From contig JBAZQY010000003.1 of assembly GCA_041663185.1 (NCBI GenBank), forward strand, positions 1 to 60,740: a stretch of 60,740 bases of DNA. The letters are read 5' to 3'. Positions 1,272-53,227 of the stretch are shown piece after piece. The notes under the pieces were generated by a model. It saw only the letters and a list, made by a program, of their open reading frames with translations, made no database searches and was not told the DNA's origin. This DNA comes from Minisyncoccota bacterium. Its GTDB lineage: Bacteria > Patescibacteriota > Minisyncoccia > Phycocordibacterales > UBA9973. The first letter of the stretch is position 1; each line of letters opens with the position of its first letter. A program made the position numbers and the translations under genes.

Positions 1272-2672
1272 TTAATTTAAAATAATATTAATTTCCTCTG
1301 GATTGTTTGGTATGTATGGACGCCATGGAGGAAAGATTCTGACCATGGCTCCTGCAATTCCTGGGTCTTGTCTAAAGATTGATAAAACATCATCCTTATG
1401 AACCCCCAATAATTTTGCTTTAAGTACTTCTATGTTGGGTTTCCAAATAGCATCAATATTTCCATTTAATAAAAACTGGACCGATGTCGTCTCTTTATTG
1501 ATTACTTGGTCTTTATTTAGAAAATTAAAAGACAGAGCGCTTAAATCTGGAATTGTTATTTCCTTTAATTCTTCTTTTTCTATTTCAGGAAAAGAAACGT
1601 TTAGAATATTTTTAACTAAACTTTCTTCTTTTAATAAAATAGCTGACAATTCACCATTGATTTCAATTGGAGCCTCTGGAGTCTTGAATAAAACATTATC
1701 ATTTATTGTGTAAGAAAAAGTAAAAGCTCCTGGATACAAAATATATCCTGGTGGAACAAGAGCTTTAACTTTTTTAATCATATCTTCTTTGAAAGAAGTT
1801 TGGGCAATAGTATCAACTGTATTTTTATCTAAATCATTCATTACATAAATCAATCCTGAGGCACCACCAATCAGTGGACTTTTTAATTTACCGTAGATTT
1901 TATTATATTTGGTGGTTCCCTTAAAAGCAGTTACGTTAAAATCTGAAGGCGCACCATTGTAAGCTTCTCCGGGAAGAAAAGCACTGATTTTAACAATTAC
2001 CTGGCCAGGAACAATTTTTTTATTAACTAATTTATAACCTGGAATAGTCACCGTATTATCTGTTTTATATGATTTACCTTCATTATCCGCTAGAAAAGTT
2101 CCGGCGGAAATTTTTTGAGTAGTTGTGCTAAATTCGTTATATAACGTCACACTGCCTTGTGCTTTAATCGAAACATCTTGCGTTTCAGTTAAAATTATAT
2201 TTTTATTTTTTGTATCACTAGTTATCATTATTTCAAAATCAACAGTTTTGCTTGTCTGATCTCCAGAAGCGAGAAATTGTTTATTGGTGAAAGGAATCGA
2301 TTGGTGTTTTGAAGTGATAGTGATATTTGCTTTTTGAAAAACATTACCAGCCCAATAAATACCACCCAAAAAGACAATGAGAACAAAAAGAATCAGAGTC
2401 AATCGGCTAATAACACGTTTTTTAATTTTAACTTGCGGAGTATTTTGTAATCTTTTTATTTTAGATTTATCTTTGGATAAATTTCTAAAATATTCTTCTA
2501 TTTTAGATTCTTTAACTACTTCCTTGTTGATTATCTTACTCTCATCTTCTATTGTAGATTGATTAGGATCAATGGAAATTGGTTGACGAGCAACAACTCC
2601 CTCTGTTTTTTTGGGGATTATTGTTTTTTTGTTTTCTTTTCTCTTTATATCTTCTATAATAATCCTAATCAT
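1272..2672 (-). CDS. Single-pass membrane protein with large extracytoplasmic beta-rich domain (resembles CPR proteins commonly labelled baseplate J/gp47-like)
   Basis: 466 aa; Lys/Glu-rich N-terminus, one TM helix (LTLILFVLIVFLGGIYWAG), then G-x-VTLYN / V-x-PG motifs. Family call is from recollection only. Confidence 0.45.
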   Translation of the reverse strand: MIRIIIEDIKRKENKKTIIPKKTEGVVARQPISIDPNQSTIEDESKIINKEVVKESKIEEYFRNLSKDKSKIKRLQNTPQVKIKKRVISRLTLILFVLIVFLGGIYWAGNVFQKANITITSKHQSIPFTNKQFLASGDQTSKTVDFEIMITSDTKNKNIILTETQDVSIKAQGSVTLYNEFSTTTQKISAGTFLADNEGKSYKTDNTVTIPGYKLVNKKIVPGQVIVKISAFLPGEAYNGAPSDFNVTAFKGTTKYNKIYGKLKSPLIGGASGLIYVMNDLDKNTVDTIAQTSFKEDMIKKVKALVPPGYILYPGAFTFSYTINDNVLFKTPEAPIEINGELSAILLKEESLVKNILNVSFPEIEKEELKEITIPDLSALSFNFLNKDQVINKETTSVQFLLNGNIDAIWKPNIEVLKAKLLGVHKDDVLSIFRQDPGIAGAMVRIFPPWRPYIPNNPEEINIILN

Positions 2673-2673
2673 A

Positions 2674-3855
2674 TTACTTAATTTTTTTTCTTGTTAAAGC
2701 AATAGCTTCAATCATCAAAAATGGATCGCAATCTCCATTTTTAATATCGCATTGATTTAAAAATTCTGGCCCATCTAAATTTACTACAATACATTTATGC
2801 CCTGAGACCATTGATTGAATATTTTCTTCGTCTTGTAAAACATTTACAAACCAATTTCTAATATCATTATCCGCTGTTAAAAATATTGTATTGGGTAAAA
2901 TAAGAATTCTCGGTAAAGTACTTAAACATTTACTAAAAGCTTCTCCCCAGGAATTTTCGATTGATTTAAAGAGTGGTTCAACTTTCTGCTTAAAAGCCGA
3001 TGACAAATTGTTCGTACTATAGAGTTTGAATAATTCTTTAGCATCTCGTAACTCAATTTCTAATTTAGTACACATATACTTGAAAAAAGTTTTCTTACCA
3101 AAAGGAAAAGACAGGACTGATTTCAGGACACCCTTAGTGACAATACCAACATCAGTTATTTCTCCACTAATATCAAGAAGTAAATATGAATCTGGAGTTA
3201 CATATTTATCCCTAACTGCAAAATAAGTATCCACAGTAAAAGAAGAGAAACTCACATTTTTATGATGATAAATTTTAGATAATATTTTACGAATTTCATC
3301 TAAACATAATTTAGGAACTAAAGATATAATCATATCCATTTCGAGCAGTTTACATTTTCTCCCAAATGGATCATTGACGGCATAGCCATTGAGTGATACA
3401 GACATAATGTGTTGTTCAATCAATTCGGGGATACTATCTAAACTACCATATTTATTTTTATACATATCTTTAAAACCAGAAATTTCTTTTTGAATTAATT
3501 CATCGGCTAAACGTTTATTAAAAATAAAAGATTTAGTATCTGACATTTTTACAACTCTGGTTTCTGATAAATACCAAGGAGAAGCAAGCACACAAAATAT
3601 CTCATCAGGAACTCCGGCTTTTTGCTGATAAAGATCGTCCGCTGTTTGATAAAGAGCCGAGAGCATATTCTTCATAAATATACTAAAATTGAAATCTTTT
3701 TCTGTCTTAATCTCATGACGAACAGATTTAAGGATAACTGGTATGCTATTTTCACTAGATGGAAGACGCACGACGGCACCACCGATACTTCCTGAGCCAA
3801 TATCAAAAATTGCGACAGTTCGTTCTTTTTTATGTAATCCAAATAAAAATCCCAT
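2674..3855 (-). CDS. Divergent actin-like ATPase fold protein (FtsA/PilM-like)
   Basis: Phosphate-1 motif AIFDIGSGSIGG and phosphate-2-like motif LLLDISGEITDVG; 393 aa; stop lies 1 bp from the start of the downstream membrane protein. Confidence 0.65.
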   Translation of the reverse strand: MGFLFGLHKKERTVAIFDIGSGSIGGAVVRLPSSENSIPVILKSVRHEIKTEKDFNFSIFMKNMLSALYQTADDLYQQKAGVPDEIFCVLASPWYLSETRVVKMSDTKSFIFNKRLADELIQKEISGFKDMYKNKYGSLDSIPELIEQHIMSVSLNGYAVNDPFGRKCKLLEMDMIISLVPKLCLDEIRKILSKIYHHKNVSFSSFTVDTYFAVRDKYVTPDSYLLLDISGEITDVGIVTKGVLKSVLSFPFGKKTFFKYMCTKLEIELRDAKELFKLYSTNNLSSAFKQKVEPLFKSIENSWGEAFSKCLSTLPRILILPNTIFLTADNDIRNWFVNVLQDEENIQSMVSGHKCIVVNLDGPEFLNQCDIKNGDCDPFLMIEAIALTRKKIK

Positions 3856-5812: not shown

Positions 5813-6295
5813 TTAACTCAAATCTTGTATATCTTTACCTCTAAAATATTTAGTTTTTTTCAATTGTTCTTCAACAAACCACAATACAATAAAAATAAAT
5901 AATGTCAGAATGGTAGCTATAATAGCTATATCAAAAAGTTTAAATCCAGCTGCCATTCCGATTCCAGCTGAAACCCAGAGCCCAGTCGCTGTTGTCAGCC
6001 CCATCAATTTTGTTTCTTTAGCAAAAATAAGTCCAGTACCAATAAAACCAATCCCAACAATAATTTGAGAAGCCATTCTTGTTGGGTCAAAACCCCCGAT
6101 ACCTAAATAACGAACGGAAATCATTTCTGAAATAATAATAAATAATGCCGCCCCCATAGCAACAAGTGCATATGTTCGCATCCCAGCTGTCTTGTGCGCC
6201 CAAACACGTTCAACTCCAATAATCATCCCAAGTAGTAATGCAACCAGTAAACGAATAACGATATCCATTGTTGTTATATTTAAAATATTTTCCAT
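5813..6295 (-). CDS. MgtC/SapB family membrane protein
   Basis: GMIIGVER...KTAGMRTYALV, DPTRMASQIIVGIGFIGTG, GLTTATGLW. Confidence 0.93.
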   Translation of the reverse strand: MENILNITTMDIVIRLLVALLLGMIIGVERVWAHKTAGMRTYALVAMGAALFIIISEMISVRYLGIGGFDPTRMASQIIVGIGFIGTGLIFAKETKLMGLTTATGLWVSAGIGMAAGFKLFDIAIIATILTLFIFIVLWFVEEQLKKTKYFRGKDIQDLS

Positions 6296-6331
6296 AGGTT
6301 TATTGTAACAAATAATTTGATAATAATGAAA

Positions 6332-7306
6332 CTAATTTAAAATTCGTATTCTATTAAAATTTTTTCCAGATAAACCATTAATCGAAATTGGTACTATCTC
6401 AAATTTAGCGTTTTCTAGTTGAGATGGAGAGAAGATATATTCTATAAAATTAGTATCTAATTTTTTCAAAGCTCCTACCCCCACCCAAAATTTAGCAACT
6501 GAAGTTTTTGTGGTTCCTACAGCCATAACTTTGCCATCCTTAACAGGCGTAGGAAATACCAAGATTTTATCTTTTGCTCTATTGTATGGTCTTCTTTTAT
6601 CAACTGCATAATATGATTGGTGAATTAGTTCTACTTTTTCTTTCCATAATGGATCATTATCTTGTCCTGGATTTAATTTAACGTTAAGTTCAACCATCCG
6701 TTTTTCTTTATCCCCTAAACTAGGCAAACCTCCAAACTCTATTTTTTTCTTTTCTATCTTATCGGCTAAATCTTTTTCAAATTCTTCTTTTTCATAGAAA
6801 GACGAAACGGGAGTAAACGTGAATTTAATATTTTTGGGTATATAATTTTCAAGAAATTTAACTAATTCTTCAAAACTACTTTTATATTTTTCTGTGTCTT
6901 TTTTGGGAATATTGTTCATTCTTTCGACAATCATATCGTCAGAAACAAAATCAAAAATGATTCCTGGTGTGTATACTTCAGCAATAGATTTTAGCCATTT
7001 TGTATAATACATCAAAGTAAATAACTCAGCCCAATCAACTTCTGGAGTTTCTTCTAACCTCCATAGTTTATATCCACCAAAAGGAAAAGAGAACTTAATT
7101 GGCAAATTATTTTTAATACTTTCATTGATAACCTGTTTTATGTAACTTTGATATTCAGAGATAACCATGTATTTTCTGAATTTTTTAGACATAATTGTCT
7201 TAAAAATAAAATCCGCTAAATCTTTTTCTGAATTGAAAATATCTACTTTGGGGGAAGTAGACTTTAGTTCGTTTAGTTTTTTTTCTATAAATTCCTGTGC
7301 TGTCAT
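6332..7306 (-). CDS. Hypothetical protein, distantly PvcA/DIT1 (isonitrile synthase)-like
   Basis: Motif spacing PIKFSFP...VDWAELFTL...IAEVYTPG...VSDD matches my recollection of the DIT1_PvcA family. Confidence 0.5.
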   Translation of the reverse strand: MTAQEFIEKKLNELKSTSPKVDIFNSEKDLADFIFKTIMSKKFRKYMVISEYQSYIKQVINESIKNNLPIKFSFPFGGYKLWRLEETPEVDWAELFTLMYYTKWLKSIAEVYTPGIIFDFVSDDMIVERMNNIPKKDTEKYKSSFEELVKFLENYIPKNIKFTFTPVSSFYEKEEFEKDLADKIEKKKIEFGGLPSLGDKEKRMVELNVKLNPGQDNDPLWKEKVELIHQSYYAVDKRRPYNRAKDKILVFPTPVKDGKVMAVGTTKTSVAKFWVGVGALKKLDTNFIEYIFSPSQLENAKFEIVPISINGLSGKNFNRIRILN

Positions 7307-7410: not shown

Positions 7411-8538
7411 TTATTCAACAATTCCGCCCCCTAAACAAACGTCATCATCATAAATAACAATTGACTGACCCTTATCAACCAAAACTTCTTTTTCAAAAAT
7501 AATTTTTGCTTCATTTTGCCCCTTAACTTCAATCCGACAACTTAATAATTCTCCATGATAACGAATCTGGACTTGATACCCGCCTTGACTCGTAGGCGAG
7601 GCAGGTCTTTTTTCATTTTCTGGAACATTTAAAATCCAATTCACATTATTAATTTTTACTTTATTACTACCCCCTAGGTCTTGCCTAGTGGGTTGTCTGG
7701 TTGTAACAGTAATCGTATTTTTTTCTATGTTTTTTGAAATTATATACAAAGGTTCTTCCTTCTCTGATTTTTGGGTTATTGTAAAACCATGTCGTTCACC
7801 AAGCGTAAAAAATACTGCTCCATCGTGGGTTCCAATAATGTCCCCTTTTTCATCTAAAACATCTCCTTTTTCCGACTTAATATAATGTTTCAAAAAATCT
7901 TTCATATCAAGTGGACCCAAGAAACAAACCCCTTGACTGTCTTTTTTCTCGGCAACTGGGATTTTGTATTTGTTGGCAAGTTTACGAACCTCTGTTTTCT
8001 TTAAATGTCCAATAGGAAAAAGAACGTGGACTAAATCATCTTGATTTAGTGTCCAAAGAAAATATGATTGATCTTTTGAAGCATCTACTCCTTTCTTTAA
8101 TTCGTAATTCTTAACCCGCCTTGCGTCGTGGCAGGTTCCTAATTCGTAATTATTTATTGCGTAATGCCCCGTAGCAATAAAATCAGCCCCGTGAGCTTTT
8201 GCAAAATTCCAAAATACTCCGAACTTCACTTCACGATTGCACATTACATCTGGATTTGGAGTGTTGCCCTTTTTATATTCTAGAATCATATAATCCGCCA
8301 CTCCTTTTTTATATTCTTCTTCAGCGTCACATTCTAAAAATGGAATACCGAGATGAGCACATACTCGCATTGCATCACGTCGCTCGTCTTGCCAAGTACA
8401 CTTTATAAAATCTGGCGTCCAAGTACGTATAAAAACCCCAACAACGTCATATCCTTGGTCTTTCAAAAGTGCGACAGAGACAGAGCTATCTACCCCGCCC
8501 GATACACCAACAAATACAGTTTTGTTTATTTTATTCAT
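7411..8538 (-). CDS. mnmA: tRNA 2-thiouridine(34) synthase MnmA
   Basis: GVSGGVDSSV, PNPDVMCNREVKF, ATGHYA, KDQSYFL, KKDSQGVCF, GQSIVIY. Start moved to MNKINK (8538). Confidence 0.97.
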   Translation of the reverse strand: MNKINKTVFVGVSGGVDSSVSVALLKDQGYDVVGVFIRTWTPDFIKCTWQDERRDAMRVCAHLGIPFLECDAEEEYKKGVADYMILEYKKGNTPNPDVMCNREVKFGVFWNFAKAHGADFIATGHYAINNYELGTCHDARRVKNYELKKGVDASKDQSYFLWTLNQDDLVHVLFPIGHLKKTEVRKLANKYKIPVAEKKDSQGVCFLGPLDMKDFLKHYIKSEKGDVLDEKGDIIGTHDGAVFFTLGERHGFTITQKSEKEEPLYIISKNIEKNTITVTTRQPTRQDLGGSNKVKINNVNWILNVPENEKRPASPTSQGGYQVQIRYHGELLSCRIEVKGQNEAKIIFEKEVLVDKGQSIVIYDDDVCLGGGIVE

Positions 8539-8568
8539 AAATTTATTAAAAATAGGTTGTGGAATATT

Positions 8569-8647: not shown

Positions 8648-9595
8648 TTATCTCATACTCTCCCACTTCGCAAATATACCACAAGGAAGTAACCTTTCGC
8701 TATCACTTTCTTCAATAGCTAGCTCACCAATCTCTATCTGCCCTTTATAATCTTTCATCATTTCCTTTAAATTATTCTCGTAAACAATCGGGGAATATCC
8801 GGCCGTATACCCATTAATTAAAACAAAAAGAGGTTTATCGGAAAGTAACCCTCGGCATAATTTCATTAATTCTAAAAAATTCTCTTCGATTTTCCAAAGT
8901 TCATCATGTGGCCCATGCCCAAAAGACGGTGGGTCCATTATTATAGCGTCATATTTTCTTCCCCTTTTCACTTCTCTTTTAAGAAAAGAAATAACGTCAT
9001 CAACAATCCATCTGATTGGGGCATCTTCTAGCCCCGACAATTTTGCATTCTCTTTGGCCCATTCTACTGCAGTTTTGGACCCGTCAACATGACAAACTTC
9101 CGCCCCAGCTTTAGCGCAAGCAAGAGTCGCTCCGCCTGTATAAGCAAATAAATTCAAAACTGATATTTTTTTAGAGGCAGAATTCCTAAACAATTTTTCA
9201 TGGTCTGGCCCCTCGTCCTCCCTCGTCCGAGGACCTGACAAATTGTTTAGGAATTCTGCCTTTTTAATTATTTCCTCCATCCATTTCCAATTAGGAAGTT
9301 GTTCAGGAAAAAGACCAGTATGCTTGAAGGATGATGGTTTAATTGAAAAATTTAAATCGCCATATGAAATATTCCAACTTTTAGGAATACCATTTTTCAC
9401 AATCCATTTCGTCTTGGTACCCTCACGTACAAATTTTAATTCAGCTTTTTCCCATATTAAAGAATCTTTTGATTTCTCCCAAAGAGCTTCGGGATCAGGA
9501 CGTCTTAAAAAATAAGAACCATATCGTTCTAACTTTTCTCCATTACCCGAATCAATTAACTCGTATTCTTTTTGTTTTGCTGTTTTTAAAATCAT
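8648..9595 (-). CDS. Class I SAM-dependent methyltransferase (RlmI/RlmK-like), with an in-frame palindromic insert
   Basis: HTGLFPEQ, VLNLFAYTGGAT, HVDGSK, DAIIMDPPSFG. Confidence 0.9.
   Translation of the reverse strand: MILKTAKQKEYELIDSGNGEKLERYGSYFLRRPDPEALWEKSKDSLIWEKAELKFVREGTKTKWIVKNGIPKSWNISYGDLNFSIKPSSFKHTGLFPEQLPNWKWMEEIIKKAEFLNNLSGPRTREDEGPDHEKLFRNSASKKISVLNLFAYTGGATLACAKAGAEVCHVDGSKTAVEWAKENAKLSGLEDAPIRWIVDDVISFLKREVKRGRKYDAIIMDPPSFGHGPHDELWKIEENFLELMKLCRGLLSDKPLFVLINGYTAGYSPIVYENNLKEMMKDYKGQIEIGELAIEESDSERLLPCGIFAKWESMR
9175..9261. repeat. 87-bp palindromic element inserted in frame in the methyltransferase
   Basis: Perfect 22-bp inverted arms aggcagaattcctaaacaattt / aaattgtttaggaattctgcct; GC-rich loop. 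Confidence 0.9.
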
Positions 9596-18951: not shown

Positions 18952-19656
18952 CTATATTATAAGTGCTAGATGTTCTAAAATCATTTTGACCGATGCTCCG
19001 GGGGTACTCAAGTATCCACGAGCTTTTTGTAATTCACTTAAAATAAATTGCGTCTTTTCATTTTTTTTATCTTTTTTAAATTTTTGGTAGAAAACATTTT
19101 CGAGTTCATTTACAAATGTCGTTGCATAAAATCGTAATTGGCCACTATTATCTTCATCTTTGTTTTCTTTTACAATTTGAGCAACTTGATCAATTCTCTC
19201 TTTGGGAGTAGCTGTTAAAAATATAGTGACAGATTTTTGTAAATCTTTACCAGTTAATTGTTCTGTTTTGACAACATGAGTTCTTGATAAAATCGTTCCC
19301 GCTAATCGAGATGCATCTGGAACTACAATAAAAAAATGGGTATTTTCTGTTGGTTCTTCTATTATTTTTAAAAGTGTTTGCTCAGCTTCACGATTTATAA
19401 ATTTGGTCGCGACAATACAAACTTTTTTACCTCCACTAATTCCTCGTCGATTATGCCAATCTTTTATTTCACCATTATCATTCATCGTGAACGATTCATA
19501 AACTTGAAATAAAACATCGGGGCTCTGACTTTTAATTTCGCCGCGCACCTCCAAAAACTTCAACAACTCTACTCCTGTTGTTTCCGGCTCTCCTTCTACT
19601 ACATAACTATGATATAAATTTTGTGGAAATAGTTCTTCAAAAATGTTTTTTGTCAT
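18952..19656 (-). CDS. holB: DNA polymerase III delta' subunit-like protein
   Basis: YHSYVVEG, SPDV, AEQTLLKIIEEP, LAGTILSR. Confidence 0.8.
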   Translation of the reverse strand: MTKNIFEELFPQNLYHSYVVEGEPETTGVELLKFLEVRGEIKSQSPDVLFQVYESFTMNDNGEIKDWHNRRGISGGKKVCIVATKFINREAEQTLLKIIEEPTENTHFFIVVPDASRLAGTILSRTHVVKTEQLTGKDLQKSVTIFLTATPKERIDQVAQIVKENKDEDNSGQLRFYATTFVNELENVFYQKFKKDKKNEKTQFILSELQKARGYLSTPGASVKMILEHLALII

Positions 19657-19663
19657 ATATTCT

Positions 19664-19690
19664 TCTCCGCTAGGACTTTCCTAGCGGAGA
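19664..19690. repeat. REP-like 27-bp palindrome, copy 1
   Basis: tctccgctagga-ctt-tcctagcggaga. Confidence 0.95.
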
Positions 19691-19704
19691 TCTTAATAAA
19701 TAAT

Positions 19705-20289
19705 TTACGAACTTATACCTTTTTTATTTAAATAACTAATAAACTCATTATAACTTTTTACATTCTCTTTTATGACTGCATTATAAATATCGGTGCTAAA
19801 AATCGTCTTCCTATATTCAGGATGAACTGCCATTTGATTTTTGATTATTAAAATACTTTTTCTCTTTTCTTCATTTATATTGTTATTAAGCCATTCAACA
19901 TCGTCCTTGCCACTATGCTGTTTTTCATTATGAATAAACCAAATATCAATCTTCCAAAGTTCTTGATCTTTAAATTGAAATCCTAAATATAAACCATCGG
20001 GATTTTCTGCTCGTATTCTACCTCCAATATTATTATTTAGTTGTATATTCTTTATATTATCAATTTCGAATAAATAGCTCACTGTATCAAATATATTTTG
20101 AAATGATTTGGTTTCATCTACTAGCTCAATATCAATATCCCTCCAAGTCATTAGACTTGTAGCTAAACTACCTGTTATAAATGGTTGGCCATATTTTGAA
20201 ATAAATTGAATGAGTTGTAATTTTTCTAAAACATCACTCCCTTCTTTTTGTAATTTATTCTGTTGTAGAACTAAGTCGTTATAATCCAT
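19705..20289 (-). CDS. Pol-beta-superfamily nucleotidyltransferase-like protein
   Basis: ITGSLATSLMTWRDIDI (GS...DxD) and WKIDIW. Confidence 0.65.
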   Translation of the reverse strand: MDYNDLVLQQNKLQKEGSDVLEKLQLIQFISKYGQPFITGSLATSLMTWRDIDIELVDETKSFQNIFDTVSYLFEIDNIKNIQLNNNIGGRIRAENPDGLYLGFQFKDQELWKIDIWFIHNEKQHSGKDDVEWLNNNINEEKRKSILIIKNQMAVHPEYRKTIFSTDIYNAVIKENVKSYNEFISYLNKKGISS

Positions 20290-20325
20290 ATTTTTATTAT
20301 ATATTAATTTAATCTAAAATCATTT

Positions 20326-20352
20326 TCTCCGCTAGGACTTTCCTAGCGGAGA
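20326..20352. repeat. REP-like 27-bp palindrome, copy 2
   Basis: Identical to copy 1; abuts the RAYT stop codon. Confidence 0.95.
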
Positions 20353-21009
20353 TTAATTTTTAAAAGATAACCATTCAAATATTTCCTTTTTAAAATATTT
20401 TTCCGTGGAAAAATACTGAGGAAAATTATCTATATTTAAAACTTTGTTCTGAACTCTATTTTCTCCTAAATAATCAGCATAACTAGAATATTTATACTCA
20501 TTTAAAAATTTAAGGGCTTGATTTTTATTTTTAATCCCTTCTTCTTTCCATTTTTTATCTATAAGTTTTATTGGATTAAGATGTATGTAAGAATATAAAT
20601 ATTTTAAATATCTATCATGATCTACATGCTCTGCTTTAAACTTACCCTCAAAAAGACTTCCTGTTCTTTCGTATTTTTTATTAAAATACATTACATAAGC
20701 AGTTAAAAGCTTTTTCATAAACTTACTAATTCCTTCATCTTCTTTTTGTATAATTAAAATATGAAAATGGTTAGGCATTAAACAATATGCTCCTATACTA
20801 ACTAAAAGATTTTTTCTTTTTACATTAAAAAGACCCTCATCTTTCTGTAAATTATCAGATTTAAAATTTTCAATTTGATTACAAGCATACATTAAGCCGA
20901 CAAAACGCTTATAATCTTCTTTATCTTTAAAAATAACTTTTTTATCATTTCCACGATTGTAAAGATGAAAATATTCACCTTGAATAAATTTTATTTTTCG
21001 TAGTGCCAT
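20353..21009 (-). mobile_element. REP-associated tyrosine transposase (RAYT, Y1 HUH family)
   Basis: HLYNRG, AYCLMPNHFHIL (HUH), YFNKKYERTGSLFEGKF, catalytic YIHLNP; flanked by inverted REP copies. Start moved to MALRK (21009). Confidence 0.93.
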
Positions 21010-21030
21010 GTTTATATTATATAACAATAT

Positions 21031-21057
21031 TCTCCGCTAGGAAAGTCCTAGCGGAGA
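21031..21057. repeat. REP-like 27-bp palindrome, copy 3 (opposite orientation)
   Basis: tctccgctagga-aag-tcctagcggaga, the reverse complement of copies 1 and 2. Confidence 0.95.
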
Positions 21058-21068
21058 ATTCATAAATG

Positions 21069-33300: not shown

Positions 33301-33330
33301 AAAGGGTCTCACATCGTGGGCCCCTTTTTT
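33301..33330 (+). terminator. Intrinsic terminator
   Basis: aaagggtctcac-atc-gtgggccc followed by a U-tract. Confidence 0.65.
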
Positions 33331-33445
33331 GTTTATAGTATTGATTGGCTGGGCAAGACTTAGTCATTTTCTATTGAGGACTGTCTTTACTAGCCCATCT
33401 TGCAAAAATAGTAAATTGGGGGTAATGTGTAGAAAAAAGAATAAG

Positions 33446-33886
33446 ATGAAAGAAATTACTAATTTTATTTTTCCGTTTAATCCTCGGGTGTTTAAAGTGG
33501 GAGATCGAGTAAAAATATATTTTAAAGATAAATGGTGGAAAGGAATAATTGATCATTTTACTCCAGCAAGAGAAGAGATGTTTAAAGTTTGGTTCAATTC
33601 ATTTTTAAAAAAAGATCCTAAAATAGAAATAGTTGGAGAAGGAATTTCTTGTGGATTAAAATCAGTTATTTATAATGATTACCATAATGCCCGAATGCAC
33701 ATAAAAACGGATGAAAAAGTAGATGACGAAGATGGTGCACTTTTTGATGGTTATGGAATAAGATCAAGTTGGGGAGGGAAAGATATACTTTTTGAAGATG
33801 AACTTGAGTATATTCCAAAACCAGAATTTATTTTCTTAGATGAAACATCTGAAGAAAATTATGAAGGAGATGATTTACCTTTTTAG
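33446..33886 (+). CDS. Hypothetical protein (SH3/Tudor-like N-terminal signature FKVGDRV...WWKGII)
   Basis: Start moved to MKEITNF; acidic C-terminus; followed by a terminator. Confidence 0.55.
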   Translation: MKEITNFIFPFNPRVFKVGDRVKIYFKDKWWKGIIDHFTPAREEMFKVWFNSFLKKDPKIEIVGEGISCGLKSVIYNDYHNARMHIKTDEKVDDEDGALFDGYGIRSSWGGKDILFEDELEYIPKPEFIFLDETSEENYEGDDLPF

Positions 33887-33992: not shown

Positions 33993-34076
33993 TTAGCAAG
34001 GACAGTCCTTGCTAATTTCTTGCTAATTTTAGGACAGTCCTTGCTAATTTGTTGCTAATTTGACTGTCCTTGCGAA
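33993..34076. repeat. REP-like palindrome plus 32-bp tandem repeat cluster
   Basis: ttagcaaggac-a-gtccttgctaa, then units starting at 33999 and 34031, then a half copy. Confidence 0.85.
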
Positions 34077-34658
34077 TCTTAATTTTATCCAATCTTGCTC
34101 CTGTTGTTTTTTGTTTCGAGTTTTTTGAGCAAGACCAGATGTGTGATAAACTGGAAATATATTTATAGAACAATCTTTAATGGGCGTCCCAATATTATTT
34201 TTAAGTTTATATTTTCTAAGAGTTTTAGATTCAGGATATGTTTTCTTAATTGAATATAATGCACTGTTACCTAATGGAACTATTAATTCCGGATTTGCTA
34301 ATTTTATTTGTTTTTTTAATATAGATAAATTGTTTTTTTGAGCCAATTCTTTTTGAAGTGGAGCATAATTCCTACGTTTTCCTGTTGGTACCCATATAAT
34401 TGCATTAGTTATAAATATATATTTTCGGAAATTTATCCCGAATGTTTTTATGAATAAGTGTTTAAAAAGTTTTGCTGAAGGATCACAATTTTCAAAAGAA
34501 ACAATTTCAGCTTTTGGTCCTGGACGTTCATTTATAAATAAAATTTTTATTCTATTTTTTCCTGGTATACCATTTTTAAGATCATTACTAGGTATAATGA
34601 CCTTTTTATTCCTGTTACATTTTTCACATTGTTTTCTATACTTTTCAAAAAAATTCAT
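34044..34658 (-). CDS. Uracil-DNA glycosylase superfamily protein
   Basis: CEKC, ILFINERPG, FITNAI, IVPLG, VYHTS. Confidence 0.8.
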   Translation of the reverse strand: MNFFEKYRKQCEKCNRNKKVIIPSNDLKNGIPGKNRIKILFINERPGPKAEIVSFENCDPSAKLFKHLFIKTFGINFRKYIFITNAIIWVPTGKRRNYAPLQKELAQKNNLSILKKQIKLANPELIVPLGNSALYSIKKTYPESKTLRKYKLKNNIGTPIKDCSINIFPVYHTSGLAQKTRNKKQQEQDWIKLRFARTVKLATN

Positions 34659-35467: not shown

Positions 35468-36700
35468 ATGAACTATAAAGAATATTGGTTAAAACCATTA
35501 TGGATGAGTATGATAGTAATTTTTGTTGTGTGGATAGTAATTCTTTTACTACCACTCAAACCTACTATCACTCTTTGGTTTTCTATTTCTCTGGGAATAG
35601 TATTTGTAATACCAGGATCATTATTAATACAGTCATTATTTACTATTCCTAGTGATCCACAGCATTTTGGAATGATCACAGAATTCGATAAAATGGACTG
35701 GATAAAACCTGGAGAGATTGTGTTTGTTGGTCCGGGGTTACATTCATTGTTACTTAGAGGATTGTTTAGAAAAGTTGTCCTAGTAGATATTTCACAAAGA
35801 CAACCAGAATTCACCCCTCAAGATGTACTTACCCCTGATAATGTAAATGAAGAAATTCCTATTTCAGTGGGTTATATTCCTGACAAATATAATTACATTA
35901 CCTTCATCAACTTAAAAAAAGACCCTGGCGTTCTTATTTCAATGAAAGAAATTATTGAATCTGAAGTCCGTAAGTGGTCAAGACATCCAACAGAGGGCCC
36001 ACAAAGCTGGGAGGAAATTATCAAATCATCCTTGAAGGCAATTAATTTTTTAATTAAATCTCTTGGACAATACCTGTCGGAAAACTCGGACGATATTGTC
36101 CCTGGATATGATTATCTAAAAACGATTGAATCTTCAATTCCAACCGAAATCCTAATAGATTGGTATGATGGAAATAATCCTTCTAATTCAATTGTCCGTA
36201 AAGAATACGGTGATGGAGAAGAAGATTTTGAAAAACCATTTATCCAAGCTACTAGGTGGCAAAAACTTGAGCAAATGATCCCAGGATCACTGCAAAATAA
36301 TTGTACCGAGGCGAATCTGAAACAACAAATCAAAGAGAGAAAACAACTCTTGATTAAACTACGCGACGGTAAGGCTATGCTCCCGACGATTTCATTGGGG
36401 ATTGTTCTATGCCGGCTAAGTATCACCCAGATAAAACCTTTCGGACCAATTTATGAAGCTTCTGTCGCCCTTCAAAAAGAACAGAAAGAGAGGATATCCG
36501 AGGTTTATGAAATAACAACAGAGCTTGAAAAGGCAAAAATTCTCAGAGATGAATTAGCTAAGAGTGGAGTAACTGTGACTATACAAGAAGCTCTTCAAAA
36601 AATGATGAGCTGGAAGATTGAAAGAGAAGCGAACAAATTAGTTTCTGTATCCGCTTTAGCAAAAATTATTACTGATTCAACGAAAGGAGGCCCCAAATGA
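35468..36700 (+). CDS. Membrane protein, divergent SPFH/band-7-like
   Basis: Two N-terminal TM helices, VDISQR...PQDVLTPDNV segment, C-terminal coiled-coil-like stretch. Confidence 0.55.
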   Translation: MNYKEYWLKPLWMSMIVIFVVWIVILLLPLKPTITLWFSISLGIVFVIPGSLLIQSLFTIPSDPQHFGMITEFDKMDWIKPGEIVFVGPGLHSLLLRGLFRKVVLVDISQRQPEFTPQDVLTPDNVNEEIPISVGYIPDKYNYITFINLKKDPGVLISMKEIIESEVRKWSRHPTEGPQSWEEIIKSSLKAINFLIKSLGQYLSENSDDIVPGYDYLKTIESSIPTEILIDWYDGNNPSNSIVRKEYGDGEEDFEKPFIQATRWQKLEQMIPGSLQNNCTEANLKQQIKERKQLLIKLRDGKAMLPTISLGIVLCRLSITQIKPFGPIYEASVALQKEQKERISEVYEITTELEKAKILRDELAKSGVTVTIQEALQKMMSWKIEREANKLVSVSALAKIITDSTKGGPK

Positions 36701-37107
36701 CACCAACCTGGATAAAATGGTTATGGATTGGATTAATCTTAATAATTGTTATTCCTCTATTAATATGGGGGATAAGAAGTATTAATGATAATAATAATCC
36801 TAAAAAATCCGGCGATTCTGGGAAAAACAATCGTGGTACTGGATATGTACAGATTGAAGACCCGGCACCTCATGACACTACCTATTTCTTGGAAAAAGGA
36901 AAAGTGTTTCTTGTGGATGTTCCGTCAGATTACACTTCTTCCTGCTCAAGTGGTGGTAAAAAATACTACAAACGACCACAAAATGGAAAATGGGAAGTTC
37001 GTGGAGATGGTGGAAACCATCGTGATCGTTACACTTCATTTTTTGAGCTCAAATTCTACGAAGAAGAAATCATCGTAACGGTAGAGTTCAATAAAATAGT
37101 TAAATAA
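36697..37107 (+). CDS. Single-pass membrane hypothetical protein
   Basis: ATGA overlap with the upstream gene; N-terminal TM. Confidence 0.65.
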   Translation: MTPTWIKWLWIGLILIIVIPLLIWGIRSINDNNNPKKSGDSGKNNRGTGYVQIEDPAPHDTTYFLEKGKVFLVDVPSDYTSSCSSGGKKYYKRPQNGKWEVRGDGGNHRDRYTSFFELKFYEEEIIVTVEFNKIVK

Positions 37108-37999: not shown

Positions 38000-38410
38000 T
38001 TATTGCCCTGGAAGCTGTGGAACAGTATTTGAAAGCTGGAAAGTCCCCGTCAGAATACCCACCAATCCCCAGATTGATAACATGACAAACAAAGCAATTA
38101 ATCCTCCGATTATAAAAGCTTTCCCTTTTTTACGCTTTTCTTCATTCTCGGGATTCAAGTAAAATTGAATTACTCCCCAGATAAAGGCAACTGTCGCCAA
38201 AGCAAACAAAAAAGGAACAATAACTTTATACAAAAAACAACTAGCCCAATTCACAATACCTGTGACATCTTTCATGGAGTTATCAGAACAAACTTGATTG
38301 ACAGAGACCACAGGGTCACCATTCGCATCTAGTGTCGTAACAGCTCCAACAGAGGAAAACATAAACATACCAACTAAAATCAATGTACCAATTAAAATAT
38401 TTTTCTTCAT
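38000..38410 (-). CDS. TrbC/VirB2-like pilin-family protein 3
   Basis: IVPFLFALATVAFIWGVIQF...KGKAFIIGGLIALFVM. Confidence 0.8.
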   Translation of the reverse strand: MKKNILIGTLILVGMFMFSSVGAVTTLDANGDPVVSVNQVCSDNSMKDVTGIVNWASCFLYKVIVPFLFALATVAFIWGVIQFYLNPENEEKRKKGKAFIIGGLIALFVMLSIWGLVGILTGTFQLSNTVPQLPGQ

Positions 38411-38526
38411 CCCGTTAGAGATAGGAAGTCCTAGACTTCCGTATCTGATTAATTATAATAAAATCTAAACTTCATAATCATTTGAAACTATCCCTTAGAT
38501 TATAACATACACATCTCTAACGGGAT
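38409..38526. repeat. 118-bp segment bounded by perfect 14-bp inverted repeats (MITE-like)
   Basis: atcccgttagagat / atctctaacgggat; internal hairpin ggaagtc-cta-gacttcc. Confidence 0.7.
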
Positions 38527-51813: not shown

Positions 51814-52350
51814 ATGGTAGTTATCGTTCAAAATGGGGATAAGACCTTACGTAAAATCTCAAAAGAGGTTCCTATTCTAGATATCAAAAAACCAAAAATA
51901 CAACAAATCATTAAAGACATGAGCGATGCTCTGGATTCGCAATATGACGGAGTAGCTATTGCCGCTCCACAGATTGGAGTTTCGTTGCGAATCTTTGTTG
52001 TTTCTGGAAAAATATTTGATGAAAATTTTGTCAGAGGTGAAAAACCTAATGGAAAAAATAGTTATGATAAAAAACAGTGGCCTAATTTAGTTTTCATAAA
52101 TCCAGTTTTTAAAAAAATTTCAAAAGATAGAAAATTAATGACTGAGGGTTGTCTTTCTGTTAGGCCATTATATGGAAAAGTTCGCCGTGCGACCAGAGCA
52201 ACTATCGAAGCATATGATGAACATGGGAAGAAATTTGTTCAAGAAGGAGCTGGATTACTTGCTCATATTTTTCAACATGAGACAGATCACCTAGATGGCA
52301 TACTTTTTATCGATAAAGCAAAAAATCTTCAAGAAGTTTTTAATGAATAA
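51814..52350 (+). CDS. def: Peptide deformylase
   Basis: GVAIAAPQIG, EGCLS, QHETDHLDG. Confidence 0.98.
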   Translation: MVVIVQNGDKTLRKISKEVPILDIKKPKIQQIIKDMSDALDSQYDGVAIAAPQIGVSLRIFVVSGKIFDENFVRGEKPNGKNSYDKKQWPNLVFINPVFKKISKDRKLMTEGCLSVRPLYGKVRRATRATIEAYDEHGKKFVQEGAGLLAHIFQHETDHLDGILFIDKAKNLQEVFNE

Positions 52351-53227
52351 AATGAATGAAAAATTAAAATTTATTTTCTTTGGAACACCCCAAATAGCTA
52401 GCCAAACACTTGATATTCTAACTAGTTGTGGATATATACCTTCAATAATAGTAACTTCACCAGATAAACCCGCTGGGCGTGGTTTACATTTAACTCCTAG
52501 CCCAGTTTCCATTTGGGCCGAAAAACACAATATTCCTTGTTTGAAACCCGAAAAAATAACCCCTGAGTTTATAGAAAAATTAAAATCACCACCAGTCGGA
52601 CTGGTGGCCAGCCACCAGTCCGACTGGTGGCTGGATCTTTTTGTGGTTGTCGCTTACGGGAAAATCTTGCCTGAATCACTTATTAAAACTCCTAAATTAG
52701 GCACAATTAATATTCATTATTCTCTATTACCTAGATGGAGGGGCGCTTCTCCGCTTGAGGCAACATTATTAAATGGAGATACTGTAACCGGAGTAAGTAT
52801 TCAACAAATGGCTTTCAAATTAGATAGTGGACCAATTCTCGCCAAAGAAGAAATTCCGATTGAATTAAACGAAACCAAGGAAGAACTAAAAAACAAATTA
52901 ATAAAATTGGGAGGAGATTTACTTTGTAAAATAATTCCAGAAATTCTTGAAAATAAAATTACTCCAGAGGATCAAGATGAAACAAAAGTAACTTATTGCA
53001 TAAAAATAAAGAAAGAAGATGGCCAGATAGACCCGAGTGGTGATCCTATCCTAAACTGGAATAAATACCGAGCATTTTATGGTTGGCCGGGTATTTTTTT
53101 CTTCAAAAACGAAAAGCGAATTAAAATTACTAAAGCTAAATATGAAAATGATTCATTCATTATCGAAAGAGTGATCCCTGAAGGAAAGAAAGAGATTAAT
53201 TATAGTGAATTATTAAAACAAAATTAA
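52343..53227 (+). CDS. fmt: Methionyl-tRNA formyltransferase, with an in-frame palindromic insert
   Basis: FFGTP, DKPAGRG, VVAYG, NIHYSLLPRWRGASP, LDSGPI. Confidence 0.96.
   Translation: MNKMNEKLKFIFFGTPQIASQTLDILTSCGYIPSIIVTSPDKPAGRGLHLTPSPVSIWAEKHNIPCLKPEKITPEFIEKLKSPPVGLVASHQSDWWLDLFVVVAYGKILPESLIKTPKLGTINIHYSLLPRWRGASPLEATLLNGDTVTGVSIQQMAFKLDSGPILAKEEIPIELNETKEELKNKLIKLGGDLLCKIIPEILENKITPEDQDETKVTYCIKIKKEDGQIDPSGDPILNWNKYRAFYGWPGIFFFKNEKRIKITKAKYENDSFIIERVIPEGKKEINYSELLKQN
52589..52634. repeat. Inverted REP-like doublet inside fmt
   Basis: ccaccagtc-g-gactggtgg followed by ccagccaccagtc-c-gactggtggctgg. Confidence 0.9.

Follow-up and report, generated by a model that had tools for sequence, protein, structure and literature searches.

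A RAYT-type transposase gene and its covarying perfect palindromes: a probable REPtron-like unit in a Minisyncoccota bacterium

To our knowledge, systems that pair repetitive extragenic palindromes (REPs) with a REP-associated tyrosine transposase (RAYT) have been characterised almost only in Proteobacteria and Cyanobacteria. RAYTs belong to class 2 of the Y1-type TnpA proteins, in which the catalytic motif reads Y---NP, whereas IS200 enzymes read Y---Q (Quentin et al., PMC6006769 Table 1). The Escherichia coli REPtron, formed by TnpA(REP)/RAYT (YafM) and its REPs or bacterial interspersed mosaic elements (BIMEs), represents subclass 2.2, or Bertels group 2 (PMC3333891, PMC3479197). Subclass 2.1 is marked by NH[YF]H, Y[IV]HLNP, an SS in the proximal tail and a median length of 238 amino acids (PMC6006769), and subclass 2.5 by short perfect palindromes in which single loop positions are essential and by an enzyme that co-evolves with its REP (PMC8266576). 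Bacteria of the Candidate Phyla Radiation (CPR) lie outside the published surveys of subclass 2.1/TIRYT (PMC6006769, PMC3733652), and no paper linking RAYTs or REPs to CPR was found in the literature that we searched, though one may exist. Here we describe a RAYT-type gene and its flanking palindromes in 60,740 nucleotides of a Minisyncoccota bacterium (contig JBAZQY010000003.1, assembly GCA_041663185.1; this whole stretch is called the window). We interpret the locus as a probable REPtron-like unit, belonging to a CPR (Paceibacteria/Nomurabacteria-type) bacterium, in which a single-copy, largely vertically inherited RAYT-type Y1 HUH endonuclease and its cognate palindrome work together by the mechanism set out below. 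The term REPtron-like follows from the combination of a class-2 Y1 enzyme with flanking, covarying cognate palindromes. The unit differs from classical REPtrons in its low copy number, in the lack of a GTAG tag and in motifs that appear closest to subclass 2.1.

An intact RAYT gene between identical palindromes

The RAYT gene lies between inverted copies of a 27-nucleotide palindrome, TCTCCGCTAGGA-CTT-TCCTAGCGGAGA, which occurs exactly three times in the window, at 19664, 20326 and 21031 (chance expectation 0.00 in 100 shuffles); no further copy with up to three mismatches was found there. The plus strand reads TCTCCGCTAGGACTTTCCTAGCGGAGA at 19664-19690 and 20326-20352, and the loop is reversed (AAG on the plus strand) at 21031-21057. 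The last of these copies grows to a perfect palindrome of 31 bp, whose fold as single-stranded DNA (ssDNA) has a predicted energy of -14.9 kcal/mol (z = -7.7). Coordinates and loop orientations bear out what the first-pass annotation of this DNA had described, namely an intact HUH/Y1 gene inside an inverted pair, a copy that abuts its stop codon (the copy ends at 20352 and the stop starts at 20353) and a third, exact copy that brackets a nucleotidyltransferase-like gene. The features of the unit are as follows.

18952..19656, minus strand: holB (DNA polymerase III delta'), the housekeeping gene bordering the unit
19664..19690: REP copy 1, between the nucleotidyltransferase gene and holB, loop orientation as in copy 2
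19705..20289, minus strand: gene for a Pol-beta-fold nucleotidyltransferase, between the direct repeats REP copy 2 and REP copy 1
20326..20352: REP copy 2, abutting the RAYT stop codon (20353-20355), loop AAG on the coding strand, inverted relative to copy 3
20353..21009, minus strand: gene for the RAYT-type HUH/Y1 ssDNA endonuclease/transposase, intact, 218 amino acids from its ATG
21016..21021, minus strand: TATAAT (-10-like box) in the gap separating the RAYT ATG from REP copy 3, 6 nt ahead of the ATG
21029..21059 (27-mer core 21031-21057): REP copy 3, upstream of the RAYT gene, loop CTT on the RAYT coding (minus) strand

The protein matches Pfam Y1_Tnp with 37.1 bits (cut-off 23). Its HUH motif is H81-F82-H83 (in PNHFH) and its catalytic Tyr141 lies in SYIHLNP, followed by a C-terminal YSSY/FPxYF/EIFEWL region. 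Across 25 homologues of 61-84% identity, the HUH histidines, Tyr141, N145 and P146 are invariant, and the C-terminal YSSY...FPxYF...EIFEWL is invariant or nearly so. The homologue search returned at least 7,912 clusters; the best 120 of these are 61-86% identical to the window protein and 179-231 amino acids long, and the named ones among them come from Nomurabacteria, Paceibacterota or Patescibacteria. Because sequence searches of solved structures gave nothing useful (the RAYT sequence alone matched nothing in the PDB, and a profile reached no better than E = 0.47, to ISDra2), a fold search was needed. The AlphaFold model (predicted local distance difference test score, pLDDT, 86) has its best match in the E. 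coli TnpA(REP)-REP complex (4er8_A, E = 1e-6), at a structure-based sequence identity of only 11%, while IS608/ISDra2 TnpA matched more weakly (E ~3e-4; the fold matches include 2vjv and 2xm3). Judged by its Y---NP motif, the protein is a class-2 enzyme on the RAYT side and not an IS200 one. Subclass 2.1 (Bertels group 1) appears to fit best (NHFH, YIHLNP, SS, about 220 amino acids), on motifs rather than phylogeny; the middle motif of that subclass is FQ or W[EQ], and the window protein reads FE instead. Grouping with ordinary IS200/IS605 TnpA, raised beforehand as an outcome that would speak against a RAYT, is not what motif and fold indicate, given YIHLNP in place of Y---Q and 4er8 as the best fold match. 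The window contains no other RAYT, and tnpB was found neither there nor in any locus fetched. Annotated plasmid relatives are only 24-34% identical 'transposase' genes and uninformative.

All three REPs sit in intergenic gaps within a row of genes on one strand, and a consensus scan flagged two of the three as terminator-like, copy 2 on both strands. No known RNA family of the Rfam type covers them at gathering score, the only hits being sub-threshold noise. The TATAAT just before the RAYT ATG suggests a leaderless or near-leaderless transcript; a full -35/-10 promoter was not called at this box by the consensus scan. Copy 1 ends 7 nt from the holB ATG (19654-19656), and the first-pass annotation had correctly noted that this places GGAG about 8 nt before that ATG. 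We rejected its further proposal that the repeat donates a Shine-Dalgarno motif to holB: such motifs precede only 3 of 51 ORFs in the window, the GGAG is base-paired as part of a 12-bp stem, and two syntenic relatives introduced below are laid out differently (L064 has no repeat before holB, and in L038 the GGAG lies 13 nt from the ATG).

Throughout the window, Shine-Dalgarno-like motifs are nearly missing and many genes have TATAAT 5-8 nt before their ATG, which suggests that leaderless mRNAs may be widespread here. Two of the three Shine-Dalgarno-like motifs precede 35468-37107, a segment whose G+C content (35.7%) is close to the window mean (34.2%).

Palindromes and gene order at related loci

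Related loci were collected by scanning species-representative genomes and metagenome contigs for the 21-nt core of the palindrome (23 + 40 loci, mostly low-GC CPR), and further ones were fetched via RAYT homologues; contexts were read in loci of 2-20 kb. Counts of REPs per genome are exact-core matches in metagenome-assembled genomes (MAGs). The RAYT loci examined comprise the window, L003, L004, L005, L013, L019, L038, L047, L064, L066 and L071-L076. At every one of these 16 loci a palindrome lies about 20 nt before the RAYT ATG and is followed by a TATAAT-like box, and a second palindrome abuts or overlaps the stop codon, sometimes providing its TAG. In most of them the loop is CTT upstream and AAG downstream on the coding strand, which makes an inverted pair. 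The window, L003, L004, L005, L013 and L064 have the block AGAATAT..TATAATATAnnnATG in common, and the flanks of the hairpin read A[T/A]TCT ... AGA[T/A]T. RAYTs at least 75% identical to the window's carry the window's repeat type, and those with 62-70% identity carry the following variants.

L066: GCA-CTAGG-TCTTG-CCTAG-TGC
L071: CTG-CTAGG-TCTTG-CCTAG-CAG
L075: CCG-TAAGG-TCTTG-CCTTA-CGG
L072: CCG-CTAGG-CCTTG-CCTAG-CGG

When 12 RAYT-flanking REPs were aligned, compensatory changes appeared in 11 of the 14 stem pairs and 88.7% of cells paired; none of 500 shuffles reached the observed covariation, and no slid register came close. AGG/CCT never varies, and 9 of the 12 retain the central CTT. In the RAYT tree, REP type tracks RAYT clade. 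Some genomes hold divergent RAYT paralogues, and the two found at L066 and L071 (51% and 44% identical over the aligned part, respectively) carry unrelated palindromes at the same positions. The L066 paralogue (gene 3082-3822, region 3032-3822) has CCCAAAGGCC-CGG-GGCCTTTGGG, with one copy inside its own ORF, and that of L071 (gene 6112-6798, region 6112-6900), which adjoins mreC/mreB, has CCAGATAGAG...CTCTATCTGG.

Two further observations concern hairpins close to these RAYT genes. Partial duplications of a REP arm lie beside the downstream REP at L071 (10656-10700), L072 (10655-10697) and L073 (10645-10685), where they overlap the RAYT C-terminus, for example as ttctccgctaggcaa plus a full REP; such duplications could have arisen through aberrant processing of the hairpin or slippage on it. 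The RNase HII gene beside the L066 RAYT contains two more perfect palindromes, at 9385-9419 (35 bp) and 9484-9512 (29 bp), and intragenic palindromes of several families seem to be common in these genomes.

The syntenic relative L038 has the same three REPs, with amino acid identities of 71% for holB, 85% for the nucleotidyltransferase and 84% for the RAYT. Between the window and L038, 0 of 72 REP stem positions have changed, and four-fold sites differ at 11 of 39 and 14 of 32; against L064 they differ at 17 of 37. The same RAYT locus has been retained across species with 28-46% four-fold-site divergence, and the order mreB / DUF1402-like / RAYT / holB is common to the window, L038 and L064. 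RAYT clade and gene context also agree for hisS/rpsB, trmD/rpoB and lysS/mraZ. Since type-A cassettes with 85-90% identical RAYTs occur in two contexts, mreB/holB and rnhB/pepN, and the rnhB/pepN site hosts two different RAYT/REP types, the unit has relocated at least occasionally. Of the genes that mark these other contexts, rnhB, pepN, lysS, mraZ, trmD and hisS are not in the window. At L004 (CAYSSZ010000001.1, 1-4500) a type-A REP-RAYT-REP has a Laminin_G_3/ConA-like gene on one side and unannotated ORFs on the other; this is not a housekeeping context like the others and may be a mobile or phage-like region.

REP copies within a genome evolve together, because a rare CTG loop variant is common to the RAYT-flanking and murD copies of one MAG (L003 and L014, JAENWX01) and occurs again in two contigs of one sample (L038 and L043). 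The REP inside murD is 89-96% identical among three species, as against 29-64% for the flanking codons in a crude ungapped comparison.

Solo palindromes, extra genes and competing explanations

About 20 solo copies with full TCT...AGA flanks were found in low-GC CPR contigs, with no RAYT within the stretch fetched. Some of them (L031, L034, L061, L009) stand between convergent genes with A-tract/T-tract flanks and look like bidirectional terminators. Eleven others lie inside long ORFs, those of MurD (at the same site in three species), LeuRS (leuS), RecJ, MnmA, TruB, a reverse transcriptase, an AlkD-like repair enzyme, a DUF192 protein and an RNase H-like protein. Two of the three frames of the palindrome hold TAG, which accounts for the fact that every intragenic copy seen is in frame; the one open frame, whichever way the palindrome is turned, encodes SAR[KT][VF]LAE. 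Such behaviour is known in kind, because intragenic REPs and REPs that supply stop codons have been described for GTAG and CGTC REPs (PMC3733652). Matches to the 21-nt core in a few non-CPR genomes (Streptococcus, Planctomycetota, Acutalibacteraceae) have other flanks and loops, and were set aside as chance or ordinary terminators. The window itself holds two related in-frame hairpins.

2084..2110, minus strand: decayed REP (21 of 27 nt), in frame in ORF 1272-2672
7670..7696, minus strand: REP-related hairpin ACCCC-CTAGG-TCTTG-CCTAG-TGGGT, in frame in mnmA (7411-8541)

The decayed copy encodes ISAGTFLAD where an intact REP would give SARTFLAE, and it is the sole extra match in the window even when up to eight mismatches are allowed. 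The mnmA hairpin is a sister type, with the core CTAGGTCTTGCCTAG and 16 nt identical to the REP that flanks the L066 RAYT, and it sits at the same codon position as a perfect REP in the mnmA gene of L063. Across 120 CPR orthologues, the MnmA loop between NTITVS and NTNWI ranges from 13 to about 40 residues and contains peptides of the palindrome types SARKVLAE, SPRSDLGE, TRQDL. and HQSDWW, sometimes two and sometimes none; the palindromes behind these peptides were checked at the DNA level for L063 and the window only. The concern that the 27-mer might occur only at this locus therefore stands for perfect copies within the window, and does not extend to the decayed copy at 2084, the sister hairpin at 7674 or the perfect solo copies in many other CPR contigs.

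The first-pass annotation had also proposed that this one enzyme acts on the other hairpin families of the window. That stands for the hairpin at 7674, which shares the CTAGG-NCTTN-CCTAG core, and not for those at 52589, 38424 and 33993, which lack an exact CTAGG...CCTAG core. Because each RAYT paralogue carries its own unrelated palindrome, a separate cognate enzyme for each of the other families seems more likely. These families show the following features. Within fmt (52295-53227, plus strand), positions 52589-52634 form a nested, GC-rich palindrome, CCACCAGTCGGACTGGTGG-CCAG-CCACCAGTCCGACTGGTGG-CTGG, whose in-frame translation is PPVGLVASHQSDWWLD; peptides of the HQSDWW type turn up again in the variable MnmA loop of the CPR genomes P0127 and P0193, which points to a second widespread family of intragenic palindromes. 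The hairpin GGAAGTC-CTA-GACTTCC (38424-38440) lies just upstream of an ORF for a type IV secretion system (T4SS)-pilin-like protein (38000-38410, minus strand), and a palindrome of the same family, GGAAGTC-C-GACTTCC, stands in frame in the murD of L043 directly before its REP. Between the convergent ORFs 33329-33886 and UDG 34044-34658 lies a cluster (33993-34060) that contains one complete palindrome, TTAGCAAGGACAGTCCTTGCTAA, part of a second, AGGACAGTCCTTGCTAA, and the unit TTGCTAATTT four times. It looks like the REP with a compensated change in one stem pair, and its partial duplications are similar to those beside the REPs in L071-L073.

The gene between REP copies 2 and 1 has no match in Pfam or NCBIfam. 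Its model (pLDDT 92) matches Cid1 best (4e8f_A, E = 5.7e-5), followed by CCA-adding enzymes and CD-NTases, so that 'nucleotidyltransferase-like' is justified by a Pol-beta-type fold; the family is a small CPR orphan of only 36 clusters. The gene is present with three REPs in L038, whereas L064 and L065 (RAYT 84% identical) read mreB / DUF1402-like / REP-RAYT-REP / holB, without the nucleotidyltransferase or the third REP. Five synteny groups show an extra gene beside the RAYT together with an extra REP.

Window and L038: nucleotidyltransferase gene, missing from L064
L066: RAYT-REP-CYTH-REP, where L003 and L005 are without CYTH
L073: REP-orf-REP-RAYT-REP-orf-REP, with two ORFs missing from L019
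L072: REP-APH-REP-RAYT, with APH missing from L074
L075: REP-orf-REP-RAYT, with a LysE-like gene missing from L071

These five groups indicate that REP-bounded segments are gained or lost as units beside the RAYT. Direct REPs in AAG orientation bound each of the three cassettes that lie downstream of a RAYT, and in L013 a half-REP lies between two extra genes. It is conceivable, though we hold it doubtful, that RAYT and REPs form a hairpin-based gene-cassette platform, integron-like but HUH-driven, in which a gene with its REP would be excised between REP feet as a single-stranded circle and re-inserted beside other REPs, so that accessory genes would pile up beside the RAYT. Local hopping of REPs into new intergenic gaps, or deletion between two REPs, fits the same data equally well. 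If enzyme-mediated gain and loss of REP-bounded genes were true, it would be a new route of gene capture. We also considered the nucleotidyltransferase as travelling REP cargo and found nothing to support this: its more distant homologues at L068, L069 and L070 stand in unrelated contexts with no REP or RAYT nearby.

For the REPtron-like unit as a whole, a mechanism may be sketched by analogy with E. coli TnpA(REP) and IS608 TnpA (PMC3333891, PMC8266576). The RAYT would bind the REP folded as a hairpin on ssDNA, for example at the replication fork, and would tell the strands apart by the CTT loop and the CTAGG/CCTAG inner stem. Cleavage near the hairpin foot by Tyr141 and an HUH-bound metal would be followed by strand rejoining, and occasional strand transfer would copy the 27-31-nt palindrome to new sites. 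Two REPs may recombine, adding or removing the segment between them, here the nucleotidyltransferase gene with REP copy 1. Copies would survive where they are harmless or useful, as terminator-like elements at gene ends or in the single open frame inside genes, and the pair at the RAYT gene would probably serve in addition to insulate its transcription or to end it.

Several observations weigh against this interpretation. The NCBIfam model REP_Tyr_transpos (NF047646) scores 40.4 bits, below its cut-off of 80, and GT[AG]G is absent from either hairpin foot in 33 members of the repeat family. The missing GTAG-type tag had been pointed out in the first-pass annotation as the sign of a distinct CPR class, and, because the palindrome lacks it, it is fair to speak of a distinct CPR repeat type. 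The orientation of the loops also varies: both flanking loops have the same orientation in L003, L004 and L019, and the upstream and middle loops are alike in L038. Copy number is very low: the 60.7 kb contain three perfect copies, none of them away from the RAYT locus, and each MAG has one to three exact-core copies, where classical REPs number tens to hundreds. With so few copies, mobilisation at the present day is only a possibility, and conservation of the REP could reflect a host function instead.

It is this last point that would be taken furthest if the RAYT were fully domesticated, dispersing nothing and handling a few hairpins for replication, chromosome structuring or control of neighbouring genes, with the other copies as ancient relics. 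The extreme conservation of the protein across thousands of CPR lineages, the low copy number and the orthologous positions of the murD and mnmA REPs in several species would all agree with this, as would the view of RAYTs as 'domesticated transposases' (PMC5581495), and pure domestication without mobility is possible given the very low copy number. Against it, rare loop variants shared within genomes and lineage-specific gain and loss of REP-bounded genes speak for continuing exchange, and the mnmA loop, which holds many palindrome types across species and none in others, indicates repeated insertions. We regard full domestication as improbable. The palindromes might instead be ordinary terminators or mRNA-stabilising hairpins unlinked to the Y1 protein, kept identical by selection on RNA structure or by gene conversion. 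Two of the three window copies are indeed flagged as terminator-like, each copy occupies an intergenic gap in a same-strand row, and the solo copies L031, L034, L061 and L009 have A-/T-tract flanks between convergent genes. Four features, however, would not be found in ordinary terminators: the sequence is the same at the two ends of each RAYT gene, it varies with RAYT clade but keeps CTAGG..CTT..CCTAG, RAYT paralogues of a single genome have different ones, and some copies sit in frame in essential genes, where termination would be harmful. A terminator role is also compatible with exaptation of REPs, as in other bacteria (PMC3733652), and among the three alternatives weighed here this one is the least probable.

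An autonomous IS200/IS605-like insertion sequence would make the palindromes its ends and the whole cassette of about 730 bp the transposing unit. In its favour, a compact cassette carries a hairpin at either end and, as in IS200, one immediately ahead of the gene, and the two contexts of 85-90% identical RAYT cassettes, like the two RAYT/REP types at rnhB/pepN, would be expected of such an element. Yet the window holds one copy and near-identical duplicates were not seen; the locus is kept across 28-46% four-fold divergence, and context tracks RAYT clade. The enzyme has Y---NP rather than Y---Q, 218 amino acids with a conserved C-terminal extension and no tnpB partner, the ends are identical, usually inverted palindromes and not distinct left and right ends on one strand, and solo palindromes exist without a transposase. 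We consider an autonomous insertion sequence quite unlikely, and continue to favour the REPtron-like unit.

Comparison with described systems

The locus extends the REP/RAYT system of E. coli and Pseudomonas to a new lineage with a new repeat type. It belongs to a very large and conserved CPR clade in which all members examined have cognate, covarying perfect palindromes and no GTAG. The conserved inner stem and CTT, together with free outer stems, offer a clean, naturally occurring series of sequences from which to learn how a Y1 enzyme recognises a perfect hairpin. In these gene-dense, reduced genomes the REPs persist mainly as nine-codon in-frame inserts in essential genes and as terminator-like elements, which affects the annotation of CPR proteins, as hypervariable loops of MnmA, MurD and Fmt are palindrome-encoded.

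With the E. coli REPtron the unit shares a Y1 HUH enzyme with Y---NP whose best structural match is 4er8, a gene that appears to be single-copy, inverted cognate palindromes and further palindromes elsewhere. The REPs of E. coli carry GTAG as a 5' tag, have stems that are bulged and imperfect, and occur in hundreds of copies, whereas here the palindrome is perfect, untagged and present in a handful of copies, and the window protein is about 55 amino acids longer than E. coli TnpA(REP), with a different C-terminal region. The conserved CTT loop and covarying stems parallel the group 3/subclass 2.5 REPtrons of Stenotrophomonas, Pseudomonas and Marinomonas (PMC8266576). Those REPs, however, carry GTAG and are high-copy, and their proteins are about 150 amino acids long, with DH[LF]H and YI[VI]ANP rather than NHFH and YIHLNP.

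The TnpA(Y1)/TIRYT 'TIRtrons' of subclass 2.1, or Bertels group 1 (PMC6006769, PMC3733652), share NH[YF]H, Y[IV]HLNP, the SS tail (here YSSY) and a length of about 220-240 amino acids (here 218). The repeats that flank TIRYT genes are of low to moderate copy number, and some terminal repeats are self-complementary, like those described here. Subclass 2.1 has been reported without REP-like hairpins, whereas perfect hairpins flank the gene in this case; TIRYT repeats also share GGGGWSAS, which the window flanks lack, and Pfam detects no C-terminal helix-turn-helix (HTH)/DnaA_C-like domain, a trait of the subclass, in the window protein. IS200/IS605 TnpA (IS608, ISDra2) has in common with the RAYT the HUH/Y1 fold, ssDNA hairpin recognition, a compact unit and an upstream hairpin. 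Its Y---Q, its core-only length of about 130-150 amino acids and its distinct left and right ends with guide tetranucleotides have no counterpart here, nor do the multi-copy identical elements and the frequent tnpB partner. Rickettsia palindromic elements and other intragenic REPs (PMC3733652) likewise sit in frame in housekeeping genes, often those of replication and repair. The Rickettsia elements are about 100-150 bp long and have no known cognate transposase, whereas the palindrome described here has 27 nt, or nine codons, and encodes nearly the same peptide in both orientations.

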